Shown: positions 6,647 through 42,139, numbered from the stretch's first letter. The stretch: DNA of 64,000 nucleotides from an uncultured Candidatus Saccharibacteria bacterium (GCA_964507855.1 CAZDQS010000001.1:230121-294120), one strand, 5' to 3'. Numbers and translations: made by a program. The notes: generated by a model not told the origin, from the sequence alone.

Positions 6647-7132
6647 ATGATTGGCTATGTAATCCTCGGCCTGGTGCTGGGCTTGCCGCTGCTCCTTGGT
6701 ATTCTCCTGCGGGTTAATGTTTCATATCTGTTTTTTGCCCTCATGGCGGGCGAGTTGCTGGCCCGTTACTTTGGTGATGATGCCGAAGTGGTCATGGGGC
6801 TGGTGACCAAGGATGAGGTGGTGCTACGGTATGCGGAAGTGGTGGTGTTGCTCCTGCCGATAGTCCTGACGGCGCTCGTGCTCAAGCACACTATTTCGCA
6901 TGGCAAGCTGTTTGTTCAGCTGATACCGATGGTTGTTACCGGTGTCGTGCTGGCGGCATTCCTGCTGCCGATGCTGCCGGACGGATTACAGACCGAAGTC
7001 CGTTCTACCCAAATTGGCGGGCAATTATTGAAAGACAGTGATTTCATCATCGGTGCGGTGGTGATGCTCCAGATTGTCTCTCTCTGGTTGCTTCAGCGGA
7101 GCAAAGAGGGGCACGGGAAGAAGAAGCATTAG
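6647..7132 (+). CDS. Hypothetical polytopic membrane protein
   Basis: 161 aa, 4-5 hydrophobic helices. ATG lies 6 nt after TGcTATCAT. Confidence 0.6.
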   Translation: MIGYVILGLVLGLPLLLGILLRVNVSYLFFALMAGELLARYFGDDAEVVMGLVTKDEVVLRYAEVVVLLLPIVLTALVLKHTISHGKLFVQLIPMVVTGVVLAAFLLPMLPDGLQTEVRSTQIGGQLLKDSDFIIGAVVMLQIVSLWLLQRSKEGHGKKKH

Positions 7133-7166
7133 CCGTAAACTACTTTGAAGTGAAACTGGGTATGAA

Positions 7167-7300
7167 TGGGCCCACTGGACTAGCGCACATCTGCACTCGT
7201 CCTCGAAGCAGGCTTCTGCGGGCGAGCTTGAAGACCGAACCCAGGACTTGCAGATTTTCTAAAGAAAATCCGCGTCCTGATTTCGAGGCACAATAGACTG
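7167..7300 (-). repeat. Degenerate tRNA-Lys 3' third with a 57-nt T-loop insert (type II module)
   Basis: Minus strand reads ..CAGGACGCGGATTTTC TTTA GAAAATCTGCAAGTCCTGGGTTCG[57 nt]TCCAGTGGGCCCA. Homologous to 62666..62804. Confidence 0.55.
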
Positions 7301-7338
7301 CCAATGAAAAAGCCCCACCGTTGGTGAGGCATTTTCAT

Positions 7339-7497
7339 TGGAGGGCCCACTGGGATTCGGTCACCTTTGGCGACCCCGGAACTTCACGATTGGCAGCGTA
7401 GCTGCCATCGGAAGATTCCCTTGCGACATGTCACCGGCACGTCTCACCCAGGACACGCGCACGCGTCCTGATTTTGTATCTCGAGTAAGTGCTCCAC
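7339..7497 (-). repeat. Partial tRNA-Lys copy (12 nt + 21 nt exact) split by an 86-nt three-hairpin core (type I module)
   Basis: 7446-7457 and 7339-7359 are identical to tRNA-Lys positions 7552-7563 and 7530-7550. The 86-nt insert at 7360-7445 is homologous to 42316..42434 and 34866..34972. Confidence 0.6.
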
Positions 7498-7498
7498 G

Positions 7499-7523
7499 AA
7501 AAAACTCCACACAAGGTGGAGTT
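7499..7523 (-). terminator. Rho-independent terminator after tRNA-Lys(UUU)
   Basis: Minus strand CTCCAC CTTGT GTGGAG followed by TTTTTT. Confidence 0.7.
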
Positions 7524-7529
7524 CATTCG

Positions 7530-7606
7530 TGGAGGGCCCACTGGGATTCGAACCCAGGACACGTGGCTTAAAAGGCCACTGCTCTAACCAACTGAGCTAT
7601 GGGCCC
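7530..7606 (-). tRNA. tRNA-Lys(UUU), CCA encoded
   Basis: Minus strand GGGCCCA TA GCTC AGTTGGTTA GAGC A GTGGC CTTTTAA GCCAC GTGTC CTGGG TTCGAAT CCCAG TGGGCCC T CCA; clean cloverleaf. Confidence 0.95.
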
Positions 7607-7718
7607 ATGATGAGACAAACCTACGGTTTTTCTCATCGCTCGTCGGCGAAGCCGAGTCGCTGAAGCGACCAAGCTCGCTGCTCTTTTCCCCTTAAGCGAG
7701 CTTCCGAAAACTCCGTAT

Positions 7719-7747
7719 ATTATCTGGTTTTTGGGGTAAAAAGTCAA
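7719..7747 (-). promoter_or_regulatory. Candidate promoter of tRNA-Lys(UUU): TTGACT-17-GATAAT
   Basis: Minus strand TTGACT (7747-7742), 17-nt spacer, GATAAT (7724-7719). This leaves a hairpin-rich leader of about 105 nt before the tRNA. Confidence 0.45.
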
Positions 7748-7807
7748 TTTCTCTTGTAGCCAAGTTTATGATTGGCATTTATAAAGTATATTAACTATTA
7801 TTCAGGT

Positions 7808-9244
7808 ATGGAAGGTCTGATTCATCATAAGTTCCGGCGCACGACACTGATTTCGGTGGGGTTGGCGGCATTCTTGCTTGGACTTGTCGCTGCTCGGCAT
7901 GTGGTGGTGCCCGGCTTCTCTTGGCTGTTTTTGCTTCTGCCCTGTGTCGTGATAGTGCGCCGGAAGACGTTGGTTGCGTTGATGGCGGTTTGTCTCATTG
8001 GCCTATCACTCGGTGTGGCGCGCGGTAGCACGGTGATGGTGGCGGTGTCCGAATACCAGCAGTTCTATAATCAGGAAATTGCGGCGCAGGGTGTGGTGAT
8101 TGATGATCCGGTGTATGACGATAATGGGCAATTTGACTTTCGGGTGGGCCGCGTTAGGATTGATGACACAAAACTGCCGGGCCAGGTGCGGGTACGGGGG
8201 TTTGTCACTGATATCCGTCGTGGTGATGCGGTGCGGGTGGCGGGGAGGCTGCAAGACGGGTTTGGCAATTACCAGGCGGAAGTGCGGTTTGCTGATATAG
8301 CTGTTGTCAGCCGGTCGGGTAGTTGGCTGGAGAAAACCAGGCGGGAATTTTTTGCCTCTACCTATAATGTGTTGCCTGAGCCTCAAGCGAGTTTGGGTTT
8401 GGGGTTTCTGGTTGGCTTGCGTTCGGCGCTGCCGGAAGATTTTGATGAGCAGTTGAGGATTGCCGGACTGACGCATATAGTCGTTGCATCCGGCTACAAC
8501 TTGACTATTCTCGTGCGATTGTCCCGGCGGCTTTTGGTCAAGCACTCCAAGTATCAGGCCTTCATGGGTTCCGTGCTGCTCGTATTGGGGTTCTTGGTTA
8601 TTACGGGCGCTAGTCCGTCAATTACGCGTGCGGCTGTCGTGACGCTGCTCAGTCTCGGGGCATGGTACTACGGGCGACGGATTCATCCGATACTGCTGAT
8701 TTTACTCGGCGCGGCGCTGACAGCTGGGGTCAATCCGCTCTTTATCTGGCATGACCTTGGCTGGTGGTTATCGTTCTTGGCATTTACCGGTGTGTTGGTG
8801 CTCGCGCCGTTACTAACGAAACGTTTATGTGGAGATAAGCAGCCAAAGTTGCTTGCGCAAGTGGCTATTGAAACAATTGCCGCGCAAGTTATGGCGACGC
8901 CACTTATCATGTTTGTATTCGGTGAATTTTCCCTTGTGGCGCTGCTTGCCAACCTGGCGGTTGTGCCATTTATCCCGCTAGCGATGTTGTTTACTTTTGT
9001 TGGCGGCTCGGTCGGGTTCGTCTCGCCGGTACTTGGCAGTTGGTTGGCGTTGCCTGCGCAGTGGGTTCTTGGATATATCGTCTCAATTACCCGGCTGCTC
9101 GCCTCGCCCTCGTGGGCACAGCAGTCTGTTGCGCTAGGTGCCGGCGGTCTTGCTGTTTTGTATGGGGTGGTGGCTATGGTGGCTGTTGTTTTGTACCGCA
9201 AGACAAAGCTTCGATTTCACCACGTGCCGGCTGTCGTCGAATAG
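7808..9244 (+). CDS. comEC: ComEC/Rec2 DNA-uptake channel (DUF4131 + competence domain, no C-terminal metallo-beta-lactamase domain)
   Basis: ORF 7772..9244. ATG at 7808 lies 6 nt after TATTAT. Many TM helices; GLTHIVVASGYNLTIL and SPSITRAAVV blocks are typical of ComEC. Confidence 0.8.
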   Translation: MEGLIHHKFRRTTLISVGLAAFLLGLVAARHVVVPGFSWLFLLLPCVVIVRRKTLVALMAVCLIGLSLGVARGSTVMVAVSEYQQFYNQEIAAQGVVIDDPVYDDNGQFDFRVGRVRIDDTKLPGQVRVRGFVTDIRRGDAVRVAGRLQDGFGNYQAEVRFADIAVVSRSGSWLEKTRREFFASTYNVLPEPQASLGLGFLVGLRSALPEDFDEQLRIAGLTHIVVASGYNLTILVRLSRRLLVKHSKYQAFMGSVLLVLGFLVITGASPSITRAAVVTLLSLGAWYYGRRIHPILLILLGAALTAGVNPLFIWHDLGWWLSFLAFTGVLVLAPLLTKRLCGDKQPKLLAQVAIETIAAQVMATPLIMFVFGEFSLVALLANLAVVPFIPLAMLFTFVGGSVGFVSPVLGSWLALPAQWVLGYIVSITRLLASPSWAQQSVALGAGGLAVLYGVVAMVAVVLYRKTKLRFHHVPAVVE

Positions 9245-9298
9245 GAAAAGCATGGTATAATAACAGATATAGAAACGTGTTTTTGAAGGATTTTTATT

Positions 9299-10024
9299 AT
9301 GGCAGGTCACAGCAAGTGGGCGCAGATCAAGCGCCAAAAGGGAGTTAATGACGCCAAGCGTGGTGCTCTATTCACGCGCCTTGGTAACCAGATAGCTATT
9401 GCAGCGCGTAGTGGTACTGATCCGGCCATGAATCCATCACTTGCTATGGCCGTCGAAAAGGCCAAGGCGGCCAACATGCCGCTGAGTAACATTGAGCGGG
9501 CAATCCAGCGTGTTAAGGATAAGTCGGCAGCGGATCTCCAGGAGGTCATGTACGAAGGATATGGTCCGGGGGGTGTGGCGATTTTGGTTGAGTGCGCGAC
9601 TGATAACTTAAACCGCACGTATCCGGAAGTACGCCTTGCTTTCAGCAAGCACGGCGGCAGCATAGGCGAAAAGGGCTCGGTTGCCTTTCAGTTTGAGCGC
9701 AAGGGTATGATCCGGGTGAAGGGCAGCGGTGATGAGCTGGTGCTGACAGCACTCGATGCCGGCGCGGAGGATGTGCAGGAGGAAAGTGAAGAATCAGTTG
9801 TCTACACCGACCAGAAGGAACTGGCTCGCGTCCGTGACGGGTTAAAAGAAGCGGGCGTTGAAGTGGTCGAGGCGGAGCTTACCTATGTCCCGAACAACAC
9901 GATAGAGGTCACCGATAAAGAAACAGCCGGCAAAATCATGCGCCTTATGGATGCGCTTGATGATCTGGATGATGTCACTGCGACACACACAAACTTTGAC
10001 ATAAGCGACGACATTACGCTGTAA
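9299..10024 (+). CDS. yebC: YebC/PmpR family DNA-binding regulator
   Basis: MAGHSKWAQIKRQKG.. N-terminus and full-length YebC-like sequence. TGgTATAAT at 9251-9259. Confidence 0.95.
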   Translation: MAGHSKWAQIKRQKGVNDAKRGALFTRLGNQIAIAARSGTDPAMNPSLAMAVEKAKAANMPLSNIERAIQRVKDKSAADLQEVMYEGYGPGGVAILVECATDNLNRTYPEVRLAFSKHGGSIGEKGSVAFQFERKGMIRVKGSGDELVLTALDAGAEDVQEESEESVVYTDQKELARVRDGLKEAGVEVVEAELTYVPNNTIEVTDKETAGKIMRLMDALDDLDDVTATHTNFDISDDITL

Positions 10025-10043
10025 GTATTCTATAACCAGCATT

Positions 10044-10072
10044 TTGACGTGAATAAAACCTAAGCGTATTAT
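10044..10072 (+). promoter_or_regulatory. Candidate promoter TTGACG-17-TATTAT placed 7 nt before the ATG at 10080 (leaderless)
   Basis: TTGACG 10044-10049, 17-nt spacer, TATTAT 10067-10072, ATG at 10080. Confidence 0.5.
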
Positions 10073-10079
10073 TCACATT

Positions 10080-11636
10080 ATGAACAGGTTGTTCTGTTTG
10101 GTGCTGCTATTTGGAGGGACATTGTTGTTGCCTCTTGTGCCGCAGACAGCCTACGCCGCAGATGAACCGCGGCTATTTATTAGCACAGTCAAGACAAGCG
10201 GTGGGAATACGAGCGAGAAAACAGTTGAGTATATTGAGCTGTATAACGCGGGGCTTGCGGACGTTTCTCTGGATGGGTGGTTCGTTGAGTATGCCAAGCC
10301 GTCAAGTGGGCGAGGGCCAGAAAGCTGTGGTACTGATCCGTGGGATAGTCCGGATCTTACGGTAACAGAAGTCACGTTAAGCGGGACGGTTTTTTGGCAC
10401 GATGCTTTGCGGGTACCGCTCAGAATGAATGACAATGTAGCCGGTAGTCTCCGCCTGGTGCGGCGGGTTACGGACGATTCGGTAGTCGTGCATGATGTTG
10501 TGGGGTGGGGGAGCGAAACGTCGGTTGCTTACTGCTTTGAAGGGACTGCTGCTGTAATTCCAAAAGGCGATACAGCGCTCATGCGCTGCACGGTGGATGG
10601 CATCCCAGACGATGTAAATGATAACTCGAGAGATTTTCAGCTTATTGCAGTGGGCGATGGCCCAGAGCCGTGCGAGCCGCCGCTTGTTGATGAATCGGAT
10701 GAAGACGAAACGCTCGATCCTATTGTGTACTATCCAGTTGAGATTACAGAGCTACTACCCGATCCTGGCGCAGGGTTGCTCGATAGCGAGGATGAGTTCA
10801 TTGAGCTGTATAATCCGAATGAATTTGCCGTCAACATAGAAGGTTACAGACTCTTTACAGGGAGTGCCAGCAAGTCGTATGAGTACGCGCTGCCGGATCT
10901 AACGCTGGCGCCGAAAGCCTATGTAGCCCTCTACGCACGCGATACGAAATTATCGCTTGTGAATACAACCGGCTATGCGTGGATTGAAGCGCCTGACGGG
11001 ACGCTGCTGTCCGAAACGCATTGGTATGAGAATATAAAATCCGATATCGCGTGGGCGCTGATTGATAACGCATGGGTGGCAACCAATCAGCCGACACCCG
11101 GTGCTGCAAACAAAGCATCTCTTATCGATGAAGCGGCGGCAAAAGCGGCCAACACCGAGTTGCCACCATGTGGCGAGGGACGATATCGTCATCCTGAAAC
11201 CAACCGCTGCCGGAATATCGAAACAGCTACCAGTGAACTGGTGCCATGCCGCGAAGGTCAAGTCCGCAATCCCGACACCAACCGGTGCCGCGCTATCACG
11301 ACAGCAAGTTCTGATCTAACACCGTGCCGCCCTGGCCAAGAGCGTAATCCTGAAACCAACCGCTGCCGAAACGTGGCGGCTGCCACGACCGAGCTGAAAC
11401 CCTGCCAGGAGGGGTATGAGCGCAACCCCGAAACCAATCGTTGCCGCAAGATAGCCGTGAACACAGCTGCGGCTTTGGCGGGTGAAACCACCCAAGCAAG
11501 ACCCGACTATACACTTATCGGTATCGGCTTGGCGGCTGCCTTTGGCTACGCTGCATATGAGTACCGGCAAGACTTTGGCAATGCACTTCATAAGATTCGC
11601 ACCCAACGCACTATCAACAAAAGTGCAGGCAAGTAG
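10080..11636 (+). CDS. Surface protein with two lamin-tail (LTD) domains, four Cys-rich 26-aa repeats and a C-terminal TM anchor
   Basis: Signal peptide MNRLFCLVLLFGGTLLLPLVPQTAYA. LTD-like EYIELYNAG..DVSLDGW and EFIELYNPN..NIEGY. 4x PCxxGxxRNPETNRCR. TM helix LIGIGLAAAFGYAAY. Confidence 0.7.
   Translation: MNRLFCLVLLFGGTLLLPLVPQTAYAADEPRLFISTVKTSGGNTSEKTVEYIELYNAGLADVSLDGWFVEYAKPSSGRGPESCGTDPWDSPDLTVTEVTLSGTVFWHDALRVPLRMNDNVAGSLRLVRRVTDDSVVVHDVVGWGSETSVAYCFEGTAAVIPKGDTALMRCTVDGIPDDVNDNSRDFQLIAVGDGPEPCEPPLVDESDEDETLDPIVYYPVEITELLPDPGAGLLDSEDEFIELYNPNEFAVNIEGYRLFTGSASKSYEYALPDLTLAPKAYVALYARDTKLSLVNTTGYAWIEAPDGTLLSETHWYENIKSDIAWALIDNAWVATNQPTPGAANKASLIDEAAAKAANTELPPCGEGRYRHPETNRCRNIETATSELVPCREGQVRNPDTNRCRAITTASSDLTPCRPGQERNPETNRCRNVAAATTELKPCQEGYERNPETNRCRKIAVNTAAALAGETTQARPDYTLIGIGLAAAFGYAAYEYRQDFGNALHKIRTQRTINKSAGK
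11163..11470 (+). repeat. Four tandem 78-bp coding repeats (PC..G...RNPETNRCR units)
   Basis: Units start near 11163, 11241, 11319 and 11397. Each carries a conserved cc(t/c)gaaaccaaccgctgccg core. Confidence 0.8.
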
Positions 11637-11668
11637 CATACGGCGTGCGAATAGGCGATAATAAGGCG

Positions 11669-12139
11669 ATGAGAATTCTTGGCATTGATCCGGGCACTGG
11701 CATATTGGGGTTTGGGGTTATTGACGCTCAAGGACCAAAAGCACAATTGGTAGACGCCGGTGTCATCCGTACACCGGTAAAGGAAGATGACGCGGTGCGG
11801 CTGGTGACCATTTATGATGAACTGACGGAAATTATCAAACAGACCAAACCGACAGAAATGGCCGTCGAAAAACTGTTCTTCGCCCAGAACGTCACAACTG
11901 CGATGACCGTGGCGCAGGCCCGAGGGGTGGTGTTGCTCTGCGGCATGCAGGCTGGACTCAAGATAGCTGAATACACACCACTGCAAATCAAGCAGGCGCT
12001 GACTGGCTACGGCCGGGCAGAGAAGCGGCAAATCCAAGAAATGGTCCGCGTCATTCTGCAGCTCAAGGATGTACCGAAACCTGATGACTGCGCCGACGCG
12101 CTGGCCGCTGCCATCTGCCACTCCATGACTGTGCGATAA
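11669..12139 (+). CDS. ruvC: Holliday junction resolvase RuvC
   Basis: MRILGIDPGTGILGFGVI.., EKLFFAQNV.. ATG at 11669 lies 6 nt after GATAAT; the ORF track starts at 11645. Confidence 0.9.
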   Translation: MRILGIDPGTGILGFGVIDAQGPKAQLVDAGVIRTPVKEDDAVRLVTIYDELTEIIKQTKPTEMAVEKLFFAQNVTTAMTVAQARGVVLLCGMQAGLKIAEYTPLQIKQALTGYGRAEKRQIQEMVRVILQLKDVPKPDDCADALAAAICHSMTVR

Positions 12140-34842: not shown

Positions 34843-34865
34843 CGGGGATTGGCGCAGTTGGCTAG
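34843..34865 (+). pseudogene. Orphan 5' 23 nt of tRNA-Pro (acceptor 5' strand + D arm)
   Basis: cggggattggcgcagttggctag is identical to 35017-35039. Confidence 0.8.
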
Positions 34866-35016: not shown

Positions 35017-35093
35017 CGGGGATTGGCGCAGTTGGCTAGCGCGCGCGGTTTGGGACCGCGAGGTCGGAGGTTCGAGTCCTCTATCCCCGACCA
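35017..35093 (+). tRNA. tRNA-Pro(UGG), CCA encoded
   Basis: CGGGGAT TG GCGC AGTTGGCTA GCGC G CGCGG TTTGGGA CCGCG AGGTC GGAGG TTCGAGT CCTCT ATCCCCG A CCA. Confidence 0.95.
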
Positions 35094-36751
35094 CGTTCGA
35101 AATTTTTAGATTTAAGGAACTCTGCATAGGGTTCCTTAAGTTTTATATCGACTACTTTCCATCTGGTAATCTTGTTTTTTGGTGGTACAAATTCACCCTC
35201 TACAACAAGGTTCGAGATGAACTTTTCAAGGATTTTATTAAAGACCGTAACGCTCGTTGTTGACCGAAGTAAATCAGCTACATTATCGAATAGTTCGAGA
35301 TACTTTTCGTAAGTAGGTATGACAGTCTTCAAACGTTCTCGTTCAGCTTTAGCAATTTTATGAGCGTTCCTGAGTCTCTTTAGTTCAGCCCTGTAATCTT
35401 TCAGGTCTTCTTTGTAATGCTCTGCCAGCTCCTTATCTTCACCTGATACTATTAGCTTGGCTCTATTGTAATCACGTTGTGTATCTGTAATTTGTTTATT
35501 CAATGAACTGATTATGGAATAAAGCTGTCTAAGTCGAGCTTCTCTACTCTCTGCTACTTCTACGGCATAATTATCATAGTTGCTCTTAGTTGTGAAACGG
35601 TATTTATCTAGGTAGTCGATTGCATAGTCTGTAATCACTTTAGCTCTAGGTCCCTTGTCTTTCATAATACAACCGTCTGTCTCGCACCTATATCGGTAGT
35701 AGTTGACATCTTTCTTAACAGTGATGCCCGAAGATAAGGATTTACCACAAGCCTTACAGAATACTTTTCCAAGCAGAAGGTTGGCTTTTACTTGATCGGA
35801 GGGGGCTGTTATCGATGACTTAAATTTACTCGACATAAAGTCTTTGGCTTGATTGATTTTCAGGAAGTCTTCGGCACCGATTGCAGGTGTAAATCCATAC
35901 TTCTCGATTATATTGACGACACCACCACTGTATCTAATTATTCCTGCATAAGTCGGGTCGCTTAAAATATTGGAAACACTGTCTTTATCCCACTTATATG
36001 CAAAATGACCATCTTGTTTGTATTTGAATACTCTGTAATCACTTCTACCGTTCAAGTAACGCAAAATGTTAGCCTGAGACTTGCCCTCAATACGCATGTC
36101 AAAAGCATGCTTAATAATATTGTAGTTTTCGCCATCAGGGTACAGTTTGCCTTTCTCGGTTTTTAGATACCCGTGCAAAAAGCTACGCAAGAACTTGCCA
36201 CTAAGCGTCTTACGTTTGTTCCCACGAGTAACTACTTCACTCTGGTGTTCTGAAAATTGTTTAGCAAGTACGAAGGACATGCCCAGCAACATCTTACCTG
36301 CTGGATTGTTTTCAAAAGTTGATGTGGCGAAACGTAAATCTTTGATAATACCCTTGTCGAGCAGGTCTATGATTTCGCCAGCTTCTTTCATGTTTCTTGC
36401 AAGCCTGTCGGGGTGATACGAGATTATGCCGTCGTACTTGCCACTAATGACATCATCAAGCATCTTACGAAATAAAGGACGTATATCAGGCTCTTTAGCT
36501 GAACCATCCTCTTTAATAATGTCATTCTCGTCAAGTGATATACCGTCATATCCGACTACTCGTTCTTTACATTCGGCTATCTGGTCTTCTTTAGATTTTG
36601 CTTGCCGAGTTTCGTCAGTCGTTGATTTACGAGCATATAAGACATAGCGCAGGTTTTCTGGTTTGTAGAACTCCTCCTCAGCTTGAGTAGAGGATTGTAG
36701 CATTTCAAAGAGTTGTTCAAGAGGAGTACTGTTTGGTGCTAAGTCTGACAT
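35081..36751 (-). CDS. Large serine recombinase (resolvase catalytic domain + recombinase domain + zinc ribbon + coiled coil)
   Basis: YVLYARKSTTDE (catalytic Ser), ..HPDRLARN.., CKACGKSLS..YYRYRCETDGC zinc ribbon, long C-terminal coiled coil. The last 4 codons and stop lie inside the tRNA-Pro 3' end. Confidence 0.9.
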   Translation of the reverse strand: MSDLAPNSTPLEQLFEMLQSSTQAEEEFYKPENLRYVLYARKSTTDETRQAKSKEDQIAECKERVVGYDGISLDENDIIKEDGSAKEPDIRPLFRKMLDDVISGKYDGIISYHPDRLARNMKEAGEIIDLLDKGIIKDLRFATSTFENNPAGKMLLGMSFVLAKQFSEHQSEVVTRGNKRKTLSGKFLRSFLHGYLKTEKGKLYPDGENYNIIKHAFDMRIEGKSQANILRYLNGRSDYRVFKYKQDGHFAYKWDKDSVSNILSDPTYAGIIRYSGGVVNIIEKYGFTPAIGAEDFLKINQAKDFMSSKFKSSITAPSDQVKANLLLGKVFCKACGKSLSSGITVKKDVNYYRYRCETDGCIMKDKGPRAKVITDYAIDYLDKYRFTTKSNYDNYAVEVAESREARLRQLYSIISSLNKQITDTQRDYNRAKLIVSGEDKELAEHYKEDLKDYRAELKRLRNAHKIAKAERERLKTVIPTYEKYLELFDNVADLLRSTTSVTVFNKILEKFISNLVVEGEFVPPKNKITRWKVVDIKLKEPYAEFLKSKNFERGRG

Positions 36752-37013
36752 AACTTAATTCTACATGTCTTAAGCAGTAAGCTGAAAAGTCAAAATAAGA
36801 CCATGCTTATAGTTGTAAGGATTACATCAATAATTGGCCAAAAATTATAAAGGTGCCAGCATATACGTCAAATAGTGAAAAAGATGAACAGAACTCATTG
36901 CTAAAAGCCCCTTTGGACGCATTTCTAGCGGGCTGGACGAGCTCTTATGTCAAATTTGATGACTATAACCCATCCTTGTGGCTAATGCTATTTATCCCTG
37001 TTATGATATAGCT

Positions 37014-37646
37014 ATGAAACTCCCCGAAATTAGAATTAGCTTTGCTTGGTTGCTCTTTTATGGCGAATCACAATCCTTAGCTGAAGCTCACGACTTTAAG
37101 CTTGAGTCATACGACCATTATGACCAAAAGACGGCAGAGTACAGAAAGGCTTGGAAGAAGCATGAGAAACAAATAATTCACGGGCTTCAAACATCATTGG
37201 GAGTGGAATTCTATAAGCCTGTTATTGACGTAAGTTGTACACCTTATTTCATACCAAAAAGTGATCCGCTAATTATGAACTTCAAGGAAACGCCTGACCA
37301 GTTTATTGACGTTTTGACCCATGAGCTTTGCCATGTATTGCTTACGGACAATAATAAGCACCAGAGTAATGGTGAAAATCCTAAAATGGATTTGATTGCA
37401 GTATGGAAGAAGATGTTTAACGGCGAAAAAGACTTCAATGTACTAGCACACATTCCAGTTCACGCTCTATGTAAATATATTTACCTTGACGTGCTTAAAG
37501 AGCCTTCACGATTAGAGCGAGATAAAAAAGCTGTAGAGGAATGGGACAATAGTGGTGCTTACAAAACCTCATGGGCTTACGTGGAAAGTCACGACTATAA
37601 GGAAATTATTGAAAAGCTAAAAGAATCTTACGAGGTACATAAATAA
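37014..37646 (+). CDS. Hypothetical HExxH-motif protein (possible zinc metallopeptidase)
   Basis: DVLTHELCHVLL. ATG at 37014 lies 6 nt after TGtTATGAT. Confidence 0.5.
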   Translation: MKLPEIRISFAWLLFYGESQSLAEAHDFKLESYDHYDQKTAEYRKAWKKHEKQIIHGLQTSLGVEFYKPVIDVSCTPYFIPKSDPLIMNFKETPDQFIDVLTHELCHVLLTDNNKHQSNGENPKMDLIAVWKKMFNGEKDFNVLAHIPVHALCKYIYLDVLKEPSRLERDKKAVEEWDNSGAYKTSWAYVESHDYKEIIEKLKESYEVHK

Positions 37647-38266
37647 TGTCTCTACCATGTGATATTGTTTTGCTGCCCTCAATAGAACTAGCGAACAAGG
37701 CTATTGAAGCTAGTAAAGCAACCAATAAATACGAGAGCTTCTTCACGCTAGAAGATGGTAAGTTCTATCCCCACATGTCTCTGTATATGTTCCAGCTTGA
37801 TGAGACTGATATATCTAAGGTCGAAGAAGTACTTACAAGAATTGCTAATGATACGAAAGTTATTACAGCTAAGGCAACAACTTACAGTTTGGGTACAGGG
37901 TTTGGTGTTGGTTATGTTGATCCTGAGTACGAAGTAACTGAAGGACTAAGCAGCTTACAAGATAAAGTAGTAGAAGCGGTCAATCCAATTCGAGCAGGTA
38001 TGCGTGAAAGTGATATTAAGAAAATGCAGGACGCCGAAGGTATTAAGCTGGAGAATCTACAAAAGTATGGGTATCCAGCAATCGGTGAATTGTTTAGACC
38101 CCACATTACCCTTACTAGATTGAAAGAACATAATCCTAAGGTCTTAGAGTTATTACCGCAGGATGTAACTTCATTTAGTGGTGTCTTTGATAGACTAGGG
38201 TTATTTGAAATGGGCGAGAACGGCACTTGTATAAGGAAAATAGCAGAATTCCCACTCTCAAATTAG
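37646..38266 (+). CDS. 2H phosphoesterase superfamily protein (LigT / cyclic phosphodiesterase-like)
   Basis: Two HxS/TL motifs about 105 residues apart: YPHMSLYMF and FRPHITLTRL. Start overlaps the upstream stop (TAATG). Confidence 0.65.
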   Translation: MSLPCDIVLLPSIELANKAIEASKATNKYESFFTLEDGKFYPHMSLYMFQLDETDISKVEEVLTRIANDTKVITAKATTYSLGTGFGVGYVDPEYEVTEGLSSLQDKVVEAVNPIRAGMRESDIKKMQDAEGIKLENLQKYGYPAIGELFRPHITLTRLKEHNPKVLELLPQDVTSFSGVFDRLGLFEMGENGTCIRKIAEFPLSN

Positions 38267-38414
38267 ACCAAAACCCATTATTGTATAATATGTTTTCTAA
38301 CAGGGGTCGGCGAAAATAACACTAGCACTTGACAGGCCCATATGTCGCTAAAAATCAGGGCCTACCCCTGTTAGGGTATGACCGACAACGTACATTGTGC
38401 GACACAAATTTAAC

Positions 38415-39197
38415 TTACTTTACTTCAGGAAATTGAAGATTGTCGTATCTTTCTGACTTAAAAGTAAATGATTCTAGCGGATAAATCTTAAATGACTTTT
38501 GGACTTTATCTTCACTAATTTCAGCAGTCAGTACTTTGTCTGATAATACTTTAACCACCAATTCTTTTCTGTCATTTGTAAGATAGACGTTGTCCCGCTT
38601 AAGAGCTGTACTCTGTCCTAAATAGTAAACACCCTGTAATAAAAAGAGGAATATGAATAAGTAGGTAACGAACCCACCTGGCAATTTGGATATGTAGCCA
38701 CCTATAATATTTGGCGTTTTGTCGTTTGAAAATGCTTGCTGGTGTCTTTCTTCTTCGGCAGCAACTTTGTTTAGATAACCCTTTACTTTGCGTTGGGAAG
38801 CTATGGGCATAATAAAGTCAGCAATAAGCACAGTTGCAAGTAATATAACGCCAAATGCAGGTATTGCACCCGACCTTTGCGTATCAGCAAATATTAGCTT
38901 CAGAAATATAAAGTAAAGCAAAGCCATAAAGAGACGAATCAATGGATATTGTAGGGATTTCCTGGCTAAGGTATGGAGCTCATAGAATTTAATGATAACG
39001 ACAACAAAGACTAACAATATAGACATTGCTGCTAAAGATTTAAGTACTGACTGTATGGTTATCTCAATAAAGTCATTTGATAACCCAAAGACGCTGTTGT
39101 AGCCCTGCTCGTACAGAAAGACCAGACCGTATGCAATTAAAGGCACGATGGCAACTGCAACATTAAATCTATCAAAAAAGACAGGTTCTTTTTTCAT
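38415..39197 (-). CDS. Hypothetical polytopic membrane protein
   Basis: 260 aa; about 6 TM helices plus a soluble C-terminal tail. ATG lies 6 nt after TGtTAGCAT. Confidence 0.6.
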   Translation of the reverse strand: MKKEPVFFDRFNVAVAIVPLIAYGLVFLYEQGYNSVFGLSNDFIEITIQSVLKSLAAMSILLVFVVVIIKFYELHTLARKSLQYPLIRLFMALLYFIFLKLIFADTQRSGAIPAFGVILLATVLIADFIMPIASQRKVKGYLNKVAAEEERHQQAFSNDKTPNIIGGYISKLPGGFVTYLFIFLFLLQGVYYLGQSTALKRDNVYLTNDRKELVVKVLSDKVLTAEISEDKVQKSFKIYPLESFTFKSERYDNLQFPEVK

Positions 39198-39298
39198 ACC
39201 TATATGCTAACATCCGTGCTTATTAAAGGGTAAAGCTTAAGCTTCTGGGTCTATGCCGTTGTCTTCAAGCCAAGCGTCACCTCTACTATGATGAAGTG

Positions 39299-39841
39299 CT
39301 AAAGCTTCTCAATAATCTTGTTGAGTTTAGTGGGCGAAAGTTGGTATACGGCTTCGGTTCTTAAGTCGCCAGCGATGTCTATTGTAATTAGCTCAATTCT
39401 ATCAAACATGCTCGACGGTATATCCTTGTGATTGGCAGTCATGATAAGCATGTCGTTGTTCCTGTATTTGTAAGCAACTGAGCACAATAAAGCATCTGTG
39501 TAGCTTGGACCCTTGTCACCTTTTGCAGAAAAGGCTTTGGCATAAGCAATTCGGAATACAGGCTCCTTCTCTACCATCTCCTCTACTCTTGGTAGCACTG
39601 TTATATTAAGGGTTTTGATGAATTCCTGTCGTTCGTTGTAACCAGTAATTGTATTTGCGTTACGAGTAAATTCGTAGACAACGGAAGGTATAGTTACAAG
39701 ACCACATCCTGCCGATGACAATTCAGACATAAGAGCCAAGAACTCATCCGATTTCGAAGCGTTAATCAGTACAGTTGTATCAAGTAGTAAGTGTTTACTG
39801 CTAAGGTCTGCTGCCAGTGTAGAGGTGTGTTGAAGTTTCAA
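39299..39841 (-). CDS. PIN-domain nuclease (VapC-like toxin candidate)
   Basis: LLLDTTVLINASKSD (first acidic residue), ..EFTRNA.., ..YTDALLCSVAY.., ..IMTANHKDIP. Confidence 0.7.
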   Translation of the reverse strand: MKLQHTSTLAADLSSKHLLLDTTVLINASKSDEFLALMSELSSAGCGLVTIPSVVYEFTRNANTITGYNERQEFIKTLNITVLPRVEEMVEKEPVFRIAYAKAFSAKGDKGPSYTDALLCSVAYKYRNNDMLIMTANHKDIPSSMFDRIELITIDIAGDLRTEAVYQLSPTKLNKIIEKL

Positions 39842-40010
39842 TAGGATAGTCCTCGACGGTCTTTCGGATTTCTTTGGCTAGTTTTTTCAGTTTTGTAACG
39901 TCTGGCTTTGCAGCCTTTTTCTGATCCAGTGAATCTGAGTAATCAGGCTTACTAATCTGACGTTCAAGTTCTTTGATTTTCTTTTCGTTAATCATAGCGG
40001 TTATCTCCAT
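39801..40010 (-). CDS. Small charged protein upstream of the PIN gene (antitoxin candidate)
   Basis: 69 aa; overlaps the PIN start by 41 nt. Promoter TGtTATACT with a 7-bp inverted repeat AACAAAG-N9-CTTTGTT at 40023-40045. Confidence 0.45.
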   Translation of the reverse strand: MEITAMINEKKIKELERQISKPDYSDSLDQKKAAKPDVTKLKKLAKEIRKTVEDYPIETSTHLYTGSRP

Positions 40011-40122
40011 AAGTAGTATAACAAAGCTAAAATTACTTTGTTGATGATAATTCTCACACCACTTGAATAACTATAGTTCGAGGGGTTTATTCTTTATAGA
40101 TAATAACGTCGAAAATAAGAGG

Positions 40123-40395
40123 TCAGGAGGTCTTTTTCTTTTTGTCTTTGGCTTTCATTTTTTCGATTTGTTTCAACGTAAGCCCACCTTCTGCTTCGGG
40201 CCTAATTAGCTCAACATCTCTACCACTACTGTCTTTGAGTTTAGTTGGATTTGCCAGTTCTTCTGGCGACTTATCTAGCTTAATAGCATTACCGAACTCA
40301 TCAATAAGGGTGTCGCCGAAAACAACATTTCCCTCTGTTACGGCAATCTCACGTGCTTCTTCAAGTAGCTCGGCAGTCTCGCTATGATTACCCAT
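40123..40395 (-). CDS. Hypothetical acidic/lysine-tailed protein
   Basis: 90 aa ORF in the island. Confidence 0.45.
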   Translation of the reverse strand: MGNHSETAELLEEAREIAVTEGNVVFGDTLIDEFGNAIKLDKSPEELANPTKLKDSSGRDVELIRPEAEGGLTLKQIEKMKAKDKKKKTS

Positions 40396-40634
40396 TTTGC
40401 ACCCTGTTCATATAAGAAATTATAGCATTACAAGTGCTTCATCCTTTGGTTCAAAGCTACGTATTGCTTCAAGCTCTTTGCATAAATTACTGTAGTGGTC
40501 AGATGTATCAATGATAAAATTGTACAGTTCGAGGACACTCGGTTGCTCTCGACCAATGAAAGAAGCCTCTTTGTGGGGGCTTTTTTCATTCTAACTTCCC
40601 GGGACTACAATAAGAGTATTAAGAGGAGGGGGAT

Positions 40635-40781
40635 ATGAAGGACAAACTCATCAATGATTATTGGGTGGAGTATTTACGGTACTGGAAACAAAATCCCGGT
40701 GCTGGCGAAAAATACCCAACGGAAGATGGCTTTTGGCGTTGGTTTGCGGACGTACACATTGAAGTTGAATCAGACGATTAG
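40635..40781 (+). CDS. Small hypothetical Trp-rich protein (48 aa)
   Basis: Own translation MKDKLINDYWVEYLRYWKQNPGAGEKYPTEDGFWRWFADVHIEVESDD*. AAGAGGAGGGGG RBS 5 nt upstream. Below the ORF-track size cutoff. Confidence 0.4.
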   Translation: MKDKLINDYWVEYLRYWKQNPGAGEKYPTEDGFWRWFADVHIEVESDD

Positions 40782-40852
40782 CGAAGTTGTGAAGCGGGGC
40801 ATGCTTCACGCTGTTCGTTGAAGTAAAATTTGATAAAATACAGGAAAGTTAT

Positions 40853-40928
40853 CGGGGTGTGGCGCAGTTGGTAGCGCGCAGCGTTCGGGACGCTGAGGTC
40901 GTGAGTTCAAGTCTCGCCACCCCGACCA
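40853..40928 (+). tRNA. tRNA-Pro(CGG), CCA encoded
   Basis: CGGGGTG TG GCGC AGTTGGTA GCGC G CAGCG TTCGGGA CGCTG AGGTC GTGAG TTCAAGT CTCGC CACCCCG A CCA. Confidence 0.93.
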
Positions 40929-40964
40929 TTCCTTGTTTCATCGCCGAGTAGTACAATACTCCTT

Positions 40965-41600
40965 ATGATAATCGTGCTGCTATTTGCAGTTATTTTCGGC
41001 ATATTGTTGATTTCTGAACTTTTGTGGCGCGGAAAGTTTCTGCGCGGCGAAGCCGGCCGGAAGTTTGTGCACATTACGGTTGGGGCCTTTGTGGCCAGCT
41101 GGCCACTGTTTGTTGATATGCGAACCATCGTGCCGATGAGTGTGGCGCTCTTGGCGGTGGTATATGTATCGAAGCGATACCTTGTCTTCCATGGCGTACA
41201 CGGGGTGCGCCGTAAAACGTGGGGAGAACTGATGTTTCCCATAGGTATTGGCGCCGCCGCGCTCTTGAGTCCCAGTCCGTGGGTGTTTAGTGTCGCCATC
41301 TTGCATTTATCAGTTGCGGATGGTTTGGCGGCAGTGTTTGGTGAACGATATGGCAAAGGCAACCGCTACAAAGTGTTTGGCGAAACACGCTCGGTCATCG
41401 GAACCATGGTGTTTTATCTGGTGTCGCTTGCCATTGCCGGGGGCGTGGTGCTTCTGAAGCCCTCAATGTTTAGCCAAGCAGCGGTACCCGTACTGTTTGC
41501 ATTACCTGCCATAGCAACGACTGTCGAGAACCTGTCACCACGTGGTACGGATAATGTTACGGTGCCGCTTTTGGTGGTTGCCTGCCTGCGGTTAATTTGA
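40965..41600 (+). CDS. CTP-dependent polyprenol/phytol/diacylglycerol kinase-like membrane protein (CdsA/DolK superfamily)
   Basis: 6-7 TM helices; GRKFVHITVG and ADGLAAVFGERYG motifs. ATG lies 7 nt after TACAAT. Confidence 0.55.
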   Translation: MIIVLLFAVIFGILLISELLWRGKFLRGEAGRKFVHITVGAFVASWPLFVDMRTIVPMSVALLAVVYVSKRYLVFHGVHGVRRKTWGELMFPIGIGAAALLSPSPWVFSVAILHLSVADGLAAVFGERYGKGNRYKVFGETRSVIGTMVFYLVSLAIAGGVVLLKPSMFSQAAVPVLFALPAIATTVENLSPRGTDNVTVPLLVVACLRLI

Positions 41601-41601
41601 C

Positions 41602-41949
41602 CTACCGTCGGCGACGCTTGGTGACGACTGTCTCGGTTGCTTCATCATCGGTAGAATCTGCAGCTGAGCTGACCGCATTAATCACTGCGACGAGCAGGAG
41701 TGCCAAGATTGCGTACATGAGCATGGCAAACAATGTCGTAAGCTCGAGTACGTACCGGTTTTCAAACACCTGTGAGGGGAAGATACCGCGGAATGGCGCA
41801 AGCAGCGGCTGGCTCATTTCGTAGATCCAGTTCACAAACCCCGTATCATTGGCGCCAAAGAGTTTGAGCAAGAATCGCAGGCCAAGAATGCCTTCAACGA
41901 CAGCGGTAAATATATTGATGAGATTAACGGCCAGAGCTCTGATTCGCAT
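41602..41949 (-). CDS. YggT family membrane protein
   Basis: ILGLRFLLKLFGAN..FVNWIYEMSQPLLAPFRGIFP; AAGGAG RBS. Confidence 0.7.
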   Translation of the reverse strand: MRIRALAVNLINIFTAVVEGILGLRFLLKLFGANDTGFVNWIYEMSQPLLAPFRGIFPSQVFENRYVLELTTLFAMLMYAILALLLVAVINAVSSAADSTDDEATETVVTKRRRR

Positions 41950-42035
41950 AATATCTCCTTTAGGGTATTAACTATACGGTGAAGTATAAGTGCCGCCCAA
42001 TTGCTCGGCTGTAGGTTTTCTAACACATCTGTTGA

Positions 42036-42044
42036 TGGTATAAT
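42036..42044 (+). promoter_or_regulatory. Extended -10 (TGgTATAAT) upstream of the tRNA-Gly/tRNA-Arg pair
   Basis: tggtataat at 42036-42044, 20 nt before tRNA-Gly. Confidence 0.45.
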
Positions 42045-42064
42045 TGCATCTGTTTTCCCCTTAT

Positions 42065-42139
42065 GCGGGTGTGGTATAACGTTTATTATTCCTGCCTTCC
42101 AAGCAGGCGACGCGGGTTAGACTCCCGCCACCCGCACCA
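42065..42139 (+). tRNA. tRNA-Gly(UCC), CCA encoded, atypical D arm and T loop
   Basis: GCGGGTG..CCTGC CTTCCAA GCAGG CGAC GCGGG TTAGACT CCCGC CACCCGC A CCA. D region TGGTATAACGTTTATTATT lacks the GG dinucleotide. Confidence 0.7.

Follow-up and report, generated by a model that had tools for sequence, protein, structure and literature searches.

A probable integrative element whose large serine recombinase gene ends inside the tRNA-Pro(UGG) gene of an uncultured Candidatus Saccharibacteria bacterium

Background

Why should the gene of a site-specific recombinase end inside a tRNA gene that is read from the opposite strand? The question is raised by a locus of an uncultured Candidatus Saccharibacteria bacterium (GCA_964507855.1, CAZDQS010000001.1:230121-294120), a stretch of 64,000 nucleotides referred to here as the window, with positions counted from its first letter. 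In the window, the open reading frame (ORF) of a large serine recombinase (LSR) of 556 amino acids (aa) (35081-36751, minus strand) converges upon the tRNA-Pro(UGG) gene (35017-35093, plus strand) and terminates within it, at the edge of an island of lower GC content. A preliminary description of the window had proposed that the C-terminus of the recombinase is a hybrid created by integration of the island. Serine integrases are the main tools for insertion of large DNA, and their targets are usually treated as idiosyncratic protein-coding sites, tRNA genes being regarded as the province of tyrosine integrases; very few genetic tools exist for Saccharibacteria and other Patescibacteria. The analysis reported here indicates that the island is very probably a 5.46-kb integrative element that was inserted by its LSR at the very 3' end of tRNA-Pro(UGG), at the sequence CGACCA, with the attP site within the recombinase ORF and the tail of the protein exchanged at integration.

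Results and discussion

Boundaries of the island

Both junctions of the island carry the 6-nt core CGACCA: at attL (35088-35093) it is made of the final two nucleotides of the acceptor stem together with the discriminator and the CCA end of the tRNA, and at attR (40550-40555) it is repeated, with identity to other loci stopping at the core edges in both places. The far junction was located by blastn comparison with related loci, homology with two of which (L011 and L097) ends at ~40557-40563. Read on the recombinase strand, the junction is host ...GAGGCTTCTTTCAT, core TGGTCG and element arm AGAGCAACCGAGTGTCCTCGAACTGTAC... in the window; host ...CCGGGCCTTGTAT, core TGGTCG and element arm AGAGCAACCGAGTGTCCTCGAACTGTAC... 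in L011; and host ...GTGGACTCTTTCAT, core TGGTCG and element arm AGAGCAACCGAGTGTCCTCGAACTTTAC... in L097. The element (P) arm is thus near-identical in the three loci, and past TGGTCG each host has a different terminator-like hairpin. On the opposite strand, the six bases that close the tRNA, CGACCA, read TGGTCG; the island therefore runs from core to core (35088-35093 to 40550-40555), a distance of 5,463 bp, and spans ~35094-40555. Its mean GC content is 0.391, compared with 0.522 and 0.521 in the flanks; the fall from 0.52 to 0.39 at ~35100 bears out the sharp break at the tRNA 3' end that had been noticed earlier, and GC content rises again at ~40600-40900.

The far end had previously been placed near a second proline tRNA, tRNA-Pro(CGG), where no matching repeat could be seen. 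It lies instead 297 nt upstream of that tRNA, at the second CGACCA; the repeat that had escaped notice is only 6 nt long. A repeat search across the island missed the att repeat because the core is only 6 nt: it returned nothing att-like, only similarity to tRNA-Pro(CGG), which is ordinary tRNA homology, and a 23-nt fragment of the tRNA 5' end that is described below. As a right boundary, or as a gene borne by the element, tRNA-Pro(CGG) was rejected: homology with L011 and L097 ends at 40555, and contigs L008 and L009 continue from the cargo through 40556 to 40811 and 40901. To the right of the island is host DNA, comprising a 48-aa ORF and tRNA-Pro(CGG), such that the island sits between tRNA-Pro(UGG) and the displaced terminator of that same tRNA, ~300 bp before tRNA-Pro(CGG).

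Comparison with island-free relatives had been recommended in the preliminary description. A scan of GTDB with the ABC1 kinase yielded no island-free close relatives, the nearest homologue being only 71% identical, and exact-protein look-ups yielded only contigs (Logan) that break inside tRNAs. In the island-free locus with that nearest kinase (L092), tRNA-Pro(UGG) is followed directly by ATCAAAGAGTCCACAGCAATGTGGGCTTTTTGATT, and the window sequence from position 40556 is ATGAAAGAAGCCTCTTTGTGGGGGCTTTTTTCATT; the hairpins are homologous. In the window this hairpin (the B' arm; 40556-40589, plus strand; 15 bp, free energy (dG) -19.6, z = -3.0 by RNA folding), at which host DNA resumes, stands 5.5 kb from the tRNA gene. 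By sequence comparison, integration has left tRNA-Pro(UGG) itself intact (ARAGORN and Rfam, CCA encoded) and has shifted its own terminator to the far end, beside attR. In two other species, different elements of the same recombinase family occupy the interval between the same two tRNAs (L095, L023), and the interval is unoccupied in L092 and L094.

A C-terminus exchanged at integration

The R-G-R-G-stop that ends the 556-aa ORF is the reverse complement of ...CTATCCCCGACCA. Thirteen nucleotides of the ORF (35081-35093) lie inside the tRNA gene, namely the stop, the last three codons (G-R-G) and one base of the preceding Arg codon; an earlier count of four codons plus the stop at 35081-35095 was right to within two bases. 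The map predicts that the empty site reads ...CTATCCCCGACCA followed by ATGAAAGAAGCC... and the circle ...TTTCGAACGTGGTCG followed by AGAGCAACCGAG..., giving in silico an attP junction TTTCGAACGTGGTCGAGAGCAACCGAGTG and an empty-site junction CTCTATCCCCGACCAATGAAAGAAGCCTC. When 35094... is joined to ...40555, the P arm of the former attP (40420-40549, minus strand) falls in frame and extends the recombinase from 556 aa to 597 aa ending in ...NFERGR-EQPSVLELYNFIIDTSDHYSNLCKELEAIRSFEPKDEALVML, the arm supplying the 42 codons plus stop of a tail (EQPSVLELYNFIIDTSDHYSNLCKELEAIRSFEPKDEALVML) that was cut off by integration. By sequence comparison, the P' arm of attP is the final ~30 nt of conserved coding sequence, to which the P arm adds ~42 residues: in the attP configuration the gene reads through to ~597 aa, and in attL the tail is lost and a few antisense-tRNA codons are gained instead. 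In other words, since the attachment site is within the gene of the enzyme, its final ~42 amino acids give way on insertion to a few that the tRNA encodes.

That the crossover falls within the 3' end of the recombinase gene or at its edge, as proposed at the outset, is upheld by the far arm shared by the window, L011 and L097, which ends exactly at the last 6 nt of the tRNA, and a hybrid C-terminus made by integration is supported by the restoration of the 597-aa ORF upon joining of the ends. A recombinase ORF of identical length in non-integrated copies had been named as an argument against such a hybrid; the opposite was found, in that recombinases at least 90% identical occur in a 559-aa form ended by a tRNA and in forms of 597-605 aa, which fall together in a single 90%-identity cluster. 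Related tails are found on long homologues of 589-605 aa (P0006, P0244, P0241, P0015, P0019, P0068, P0077 and P0105).

All sequence criteria identify the enzyme as a large serine recombinase. It matches the Resolvase (PF00239, E = 2.9e-17) and Recombinase (PF07508, E = 1.2e-9) domains of Pfam and an integrase family of PHROG (E = 6e-62), and its nearest solved structure is the SPbeta integrase (E = 5e-10). The zinc ribbon (PF13408) scores 19.5 bits, under the cutoff of 25.3 bits, yet residues C332, C335, C356 and C361 are invariant. The catalytic Y-x-R-x-S motif is kept, and Y39, R41, S43, R49, D115, R116 and R119 are invariant in alignments of 37 and 60 sequences. AlphaFold2 models the recombinase body with confidence and predicts paired long helices at residues 389-436 and 440-475. 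All recognized domains are intact in the short form, since only residues after 555 are exchanged. No tyrosine recombinase (Phage_integrase) domain was found in any ORF of the island, and the LSR is the sole recombinase of the window.

A family of elements that target tRNA ends

The arrangement in the window recurs widely, in about a hundred related elements of the bacterial group to which the host belongs. The family was surveyed at 84 full-length loci from GTDB genomes and JGI metagenomes, defined by a match that reaches at least residue 540 and by at least 90 nt of sequence beyond it. At 78 of these 84 loci a convergent tRNA gene overlaps the end of the recombinase ORF, and the stop is 8-118 nt inside the tRNA in nearly all of the 78. 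Sixteen isoacceptors are targeted: Pro-UGG (38 loci), Pro-GGG (8 loci), Pro-CGG, Met, Gly, three Leu, His, two Ile, two Glu, Asp, Gln and Ala. More distant serine recombinases, whose match is confined to the N-terminal 350 residues, lack a tRNA of this kind. Nearly all homologues that are 44-100% identical end in ...NF-x-G-R-G and then stop, or continue with DRT, ERT or ERTRTSDLxVPNxAR, which are translations of antisense tRNA. The related GTDB loci belong to Candidatus Saccharibacteria and other Patescibacteria, and the elements measure 2.9-11 kb from core to core. A full-text literature search returned no description of a tRNA-targeting serine recombinase family in Patescibacteria, a result that is limited by the literature searched and is not proof of absence. 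The island in the window is thus one member of a large family of serine recombinases that target tRNA ends, undescribed as far as we have searched. The window contains nine tRNA genes, all with encoded CCA, of which only that at 35017-35093 holds a family element, and no other recombinase of the LSR type occurs elsewhere in the 64 kb.

Family members at 40% identity are carried by two contigs that IMG/VR classes as viral (L180 and L181), and these members terminate in tRNA-Gly(GCC). L180 itself goes no further than the tRNA, as if a provirus boundary had been called there.

Architecture of the attachment sites

The tetranucleotide GAAC recurs at fixed distances from the core. Five P arms that are otherwise unlike one another have it at exactly 19 nt; the P' arms have it at 23 nt, counted from the opposite edge of the core, and there it is supplied by the codons GGGTTC for G-F; and in the B arm of attL, which is made up of the T-arm and the 3' acceptor strand of tRNA-Pro(UGG), it stands at 14 nt as the antisense of the universal G53-T54-Ψ55-C56 (GTΨC). 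For P and P' to be equidistant, the centre must be at TG, the complement of CA in the CCA end. Counted from this centre, 24 nt precede GAAC in attP (positions 25-28), and 19 nt precede it in the half of attB that is tRNA (positions 20-23). For the Listeria A118 integrase the rule is that the motif of the zinc-ribbon domain is shifted by 5 bp in attB (Rutherford et al. 2013, PMC3783163), and we infer that the 5-bp inward shift of GAAC in attB relative to both arms of attP follows the same serine-integrase rule, GAAC being a putative zinc-ribbon-domain motif. A symmetric alternative, TTCGAA, was rejected as the half-site marker: its centre would fall outside the core.

The spacing in the P arm was surveyed with a pattern consisting of the first six bases of the antisense tRNA, 19 nt of any sequence and GAAC, upstream of each recombinase gene. 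This pattern has 52 matches in 716 kb upstream of recombinase genes and none in 684 kb on the host side of the tRNA. Other spacers of 10-29 nt have 0-2 matches each, except for a spacer of 14 nt (13 matches); these 13 are attributed to other upstream tRNA genes, because 14 nt is the spacing within tRNA genes. The predicted crossover must fall somewhere within the 6-nt core, probably at the dinucleotide CA that ends it. In attB, it seems to be the tRNA half that is recognized; recognition of a feature universal to tRNAs would account for the spread of the family to at least 16 tRNA species.

Mobility and alternative explanations

Several observations weigh against the integrative element as we have drawn it. 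Neither an excised circle nor an empty site was found for the strain of the window; the protein collection contains neither the exact 597-aa product nor the ORF predicted for the empty site, and the P-arm sequence has no match in IMG/VR. No recombination directionality factor was identified. The B' arms lack GAAC, making attB asymmetric, unlike the symmetric attB of model integrases, and GAAC is 3-4 bp further out than the motif of the Listeria A118 integrase. Finally, long forms with readable context are either junctions of tandem arrays (L011, L178/L179) or unresolved (L010, L177).

Tandem arrays of two or three elements occur at one tRNA, and are recognized where the "host side" of an element is the P' arm of another recombinase (L111, L137, L175, L179, and L011 at 6690-11770). 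In L178/L179, for example, two small genes come after the long form P0241, and beyond them lies a second recombinase, 28% identical, that ends in tRNA-Pro(GGG). The internal junction of an array is in the attP configuration, with a P arm joined to the next P', and the inner recombinase regains its long tail. The arrays indicate that attL or attR can act as a target, unlike in model serine integrases. As those long forms that could be resolved are tandem junctions, a free circle is an inferred source of the long form, not an observed one. Closed circles were sought among the long-form contigs and rejected: none has overlapping ends (L177-L179 being judged from truncated end genes), and two are tandem arrays. 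A phmmer search of the C-terminal 110 aa against 1.8 billion representatives gave only 48 matches and added little.

Could the island then be a fixed and decayed remnant that no longer moves, its overlap with the tRNA a historical scar? The integrated form alone is present in all five Logan samples and in the NCBI contig, and the island has no transfer or replication genes, as such a remnant would have it. We nevertheless regard this as unlikely, since the ORF, the catalytic residues, both arms, the tail frame and the small ORF beyond the tail are all intact; elements 80-90% identical in nucleotide sequence are found in different hosts with differing flanks and cargo; and the same tRNA holds different elements in related species (L095, L023) and is empty in others (L092, L094).

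The tail itself might be a by-product, the P arm being kept only as a protein-binding DNA site, the long forms being tandem accidents, and the short enzyme always being the functional one. GAAC at +19 is indeed the only invariant feature of the P arm, and every resolved long form is a tandem junction. The tail of P0006 is modelled by AlphaFold2 as one long helix (residues 556-588) with a predicted local distance difference test (pLDDT) score of 59-73, a moderate confidence, and similarity between tails is weak: in a tblastn search of the window with tail peptides, the correct site came third with E = 0.19, too weak to stand alone. Set against these points, the frame of the recombinase is open for 44-57 codons in 46 of 49 distinct arms, far past a binding site of ~28 bp, whereas the other two phases are open for a median of 11. 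Moreover, there are at least three types of tail (LLELY/F-x-Y-I-I-D/E, as in LLELF.YIIDN; FEHCLE-x-I-x-x-WS-x-NRY; and NEP-x-L-x-TL), each common to recombinases that are only ~45% identical and varying by conservative substitutions, and the tails end in hydrophobic or aromatic residues. A tail devoid of function is therefore improbable. Least tenable, to the point of being very improbable, is a crossover deeper in the tRNA, with the C-terminal codons belonging to a tRNA 3' copy carried by the element rather than to host DNA: such a crossover is usual for islands at tRNA 3' ends, as made by tyrosine integrases (PMC5704250; PMC7192596), and G-R-G is kept at the C-terminus across Pro-targeting relatives, but the only tRNA-like sequence in attP-configured junctions is TGGTCG, followed by divergence, the far end has those 6 nt and no tRNA 3' fragment, and the residues after G-R-G change with the sequence of the host tRNA.

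The small ORF beyond the tail and a possible state switch

Following the tail-coding arm on the same strand is a small accessory ORF of 90 aa (40123-40395, minus strand), with nucleotide identity of 72-89% in L097 and L011. By a survey of 46 elements and an alignment, it represents a family of small proteins (38-100 aa) that in most elements come right after the tail stop and share the motifs K-DNLTD-L/V... and then V-x-SDG-x-x-V-TLG; members occupy this position in ~30 related loci. The family has no match in Pfam, PHROG or PADLOC, and the 90-aa ORF is a candidate recombination cofactor or regulator. A promoter-like site (TTGACG-16-TATAAT, 11 of 12 consensus matches; 36844-36871, minus strand) is upstream of the recombinase gene, and the same consensus scan predicted none between the host terminator and the 90-aa ORF. 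In the attP configuration the small ORF is downstream of the recombinase; in the integrated state it is apart from the recombinase promoter (36871-36844) and bounded by the host terminator. Because it loses that promoter on integration, the long recombinase and the small protein would be co-expressed only in the unintegrated state.

From the circular form, the recombinase promoter would read across attP into the tail and the conserved small ORF. Only the unintegrated state, or a tandem-array junction, would then yield the long recombinase and the small protein, providing a built-in record of the state of the element itself. It is possible, if doubtful, that this record is a switch: the long form, with its C-terminal helix of ~42-55 residues, and the DNLTD/SDGxxVTLG protein would come only from an intact attP and the clipped form from attL; the switch would set the direction or competence of recombination, and tandem insertion by a neighbour would restore the tail of the resident. 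For example, the long form might integrate, and the clipped form might be locked, as a mild bacterial counterpart of the archaeal "suicidal" integrases, or might excise without a directionality factor. Combined with the recognition of GTΨC, this would constitute a self-contained, retargetable system of targeting and directionality.

A probable replacement terminator for the target tRNA

Just inside the island, the preliminary description had noticed a perfect 9-bp dyad, TTAAGGAAC (35112-35120)-N10-GTTCCTTAA (35131-35139), and had considered it as either a pair of att half-sites or the terminator of the tRNA. The dyad is exact. It lies wholly in one arm, inside the codons for the conserved LKEPYAEFLK on the minus strand, which is incompatible with a half-site pair, although its proximal half does supply the GAAC of P'. 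As RNA of the tRNA strand, it belongs to a conserved hairpin (35108-35143, plus strand) with a 16-bp stem (dG -20.5 kcal/mol, z = -3.9) that is followed by a U-rich tract, and so behaves like a terminator, in line with the second option. The paired codons of the hairpin are unusually uniform: Pro is CCC in 23 of 25 distinct genes (20% background) and Gly is GGG in 24 of 25 (12% background), with p-values that overstate independence because the sequences are related. This bias points to selection on the nucleic acid, beyond selection on the protein alone. Other clades have a different palindrome, CCACCA...TGGTGG, in the same place. The hairpin is probably a replacement terminator for tRNA-Pro(UGG), which is the most economical reading because integration removes the terminator of the tRNA itself.

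Two further observations concern tRNA ends in the window. An exact 23-nt copy of the 5' end of tRNA-Pro(UGG) is found at 34843-34865, 174 nt upstream of the intact tRNA; a longer tRNA fragment (9688-9744; tRNA positions 1-28 and 37-55) stands at a similar distance in L095, the orthologous locus, and the fragment is absent from the empty-site relatives L092 and L094 and from ~50 other family elements. As only the window and the orthologous L095 have such a fragment, it was rejected as a family-wide att scar; it could be the scar of an older event at tRNA-Pro(UGG) or a lineage-specific partial duplication. At 42139, the 3' end of tRNA-Gly(UCC), a Logan contig (L006, from SRR7082966) that is 99.8% identical to window positions 40872-42139 diverges exactly (L006 1268/1269) and continues with an epimerase gene and clpB, neither of which is in the window. 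The divergence marks another structural polymorphism at a tRNA end, or else the assembly has jumped through a tRNA that is shared.

Cargo and a conserved non-coding block

Between the recombinase gene and attR, the island encodes a 222-aa HExxH protein (36978-37646, plus strand) without a Pfam match and with a weak match to a PHROG metalloprotease (E = 0.003); a 206-aa 2H phosphoesterase resembling LigT and DUF1045 (37646-38266, plus strand; PF06299, E = 1e-9; PF02834, E = 2e-6); a 260-aa polytopic membrane protein (38415-39197, minus strand) with only a sub-threshold Pfam match of the major facilitator superfamily (MFS) type; and a 180-aa PIN-like ORF (39299-39841) with an overlapping upstream ORF of 69 aa (39801-40010), together occupying 39299-40010 on the minus strand. 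The earlier account of this cargo stands as regards the HExxH protein, the phosphoesterase, the membrane protein and the lack of phage structural genes. Its PIN toxin-antitoxin pair is not established, as the PIN match (E = 0.0067, 17.5 bits) is below the Pfam cutoff of 23.6 bits; the two ORFs may be such a pair. PADLOC gave no match to the cargo of the window; PHROGs gave only the integrase and the weak metalloprotease, with no virion, packaging or lysis genes; Pfam and PHROG gave no transfer or replication genes in the island; and Rfam gave only the two tRNAs. At 5.46 kb and with no virion, packaging or lysis genes matched, the island is not a prophage. Related elements often carry defence-like cargo, such as a Z1-domain protein with a C5 DNA methylase, AbiTii, and AAA_14/DUF4143 (L010 2503-5705; L011 7171-8226; L095 4205-5674).

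A conserved non-coding block of ~130 nt (38273-38404, plus strand) follows the phosphoesterase gene. By blastn it is 72-91% identical in L011 (8269-8400), L097 (1290-1413), L098 (5073-5200), L016 (7065-7202), L035 (6624-6768) and L157/158/160 (L158 7018-7150), elements whose recombinases are only 33-39% identical and have different targets (Pro, Gly, Leu, Gln). The block contains an extended -10 sequence (TTGTATAAT) and a TTGACA-17-TAAAAT promoter consensus within an 11-bp inverted repeat (TAACAGGGGT/ACCCCTGTTA), and then a second hairpin. It has no Rfam match, and no covariation, because its stems do not vary. It could be the gene for a small RNA, a promoter flanked by operators or some other DNA site.

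Comparison with known systems

The island resembles the large serine integrases of phages and of integrative and conjugative elements (A118/LI, Bxb1, phiC31, SPbeta SprA/YokA) in the resolvase catalytic domain, the recombinase domain and the zinc ribbon with an embedded coiled coil, as well as in its short att sites without a long repeat and the 5-bp inward shift of a motif in attB relative to attP (PMC3783163). It differs in that model serine integrases have protein-coding or intergenic targets and the island has a tRNA gene; in that attP is inside the integrase ORF, so that the protein is altered by integration; and in that the B' arm has no motif. The elements of the family, at 3-11 kb and without phage or conjugation genes, also differ from those of model serine integrases. 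Serine recombinase elements have been described as integrating inside protein genes (PMC5704250), and as of 2020 the use of tRNA genes by serine integrases was previously unreported, with 14 of 297 computational candidates awaiting proof (PMC7192596). By recognizing GTΨC together with the acceptor end, a feature universal to tRNAs, at 16 or more tRNA species, the family would offer a natural series for the reprogramming of target specificity.

The "suicidal" tyrosine integrases of the SSV1 type, from archaeal viruses and plasmids, share with the island an att site within the integrase gene, a tRNA target, and a protein decided by the state of the DNA (PMC8371274). In the SSV1 type the gene is split into two inactive halves, whereas the island has a bacterial serine recombinase of which only the last ~42 residues are exchanged. 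Integrases of the SSV type, with att in their own gene, are tyrosine recombinases reported exclusively from Archaea, and a bacterial serine recombinase of this kind would be a milder version, by tail exchange only, of a trait described as exclusive to that domain (PMC8371274). Should the tail matter for activity, the dependence of the enzyme's form on the DNA state is open to direct test.

In the mycobacteriophages BPs, Brujita and Charlie, studied by Broussard et al. in 2013, attP reportedly lies in the 3' end of a phage gene, and integration into a tRNA gene is said to remove a C-terminal segment and thereby change the behaviour of the protein. The clipped gene in those phages is reportedly that of the repressor, which loses a degradation tag; the integrase is said to be a tyrosine integrase, and a long tRNA segment to be shared at the crossover. 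In such integration-dependent immunity it is the repressor that is clipped; in the island it is the recombinase itself.

The elements are small (3-11 kb) and common, and the literature searched held no earlier precisely delimited mobile element of Saccharibacteria and other Patescibacteria. Further parallels are the Islander-type islands and integrative and mobilizable elements of tyrosine integrases, which likewise insert at tRNA 3' ends, leave a functional tRNA, have an integrase gene adjoining the tRNA, carry mixed accessory and defence cargo, and form tandem arrays at one tRNA. Islander-type elements use a tyrosine integrase and a repeat of tens of nucleotides, in contrast to the island, which has a serine recombinase, no duplicated tRNA segment and a 6-nt core.

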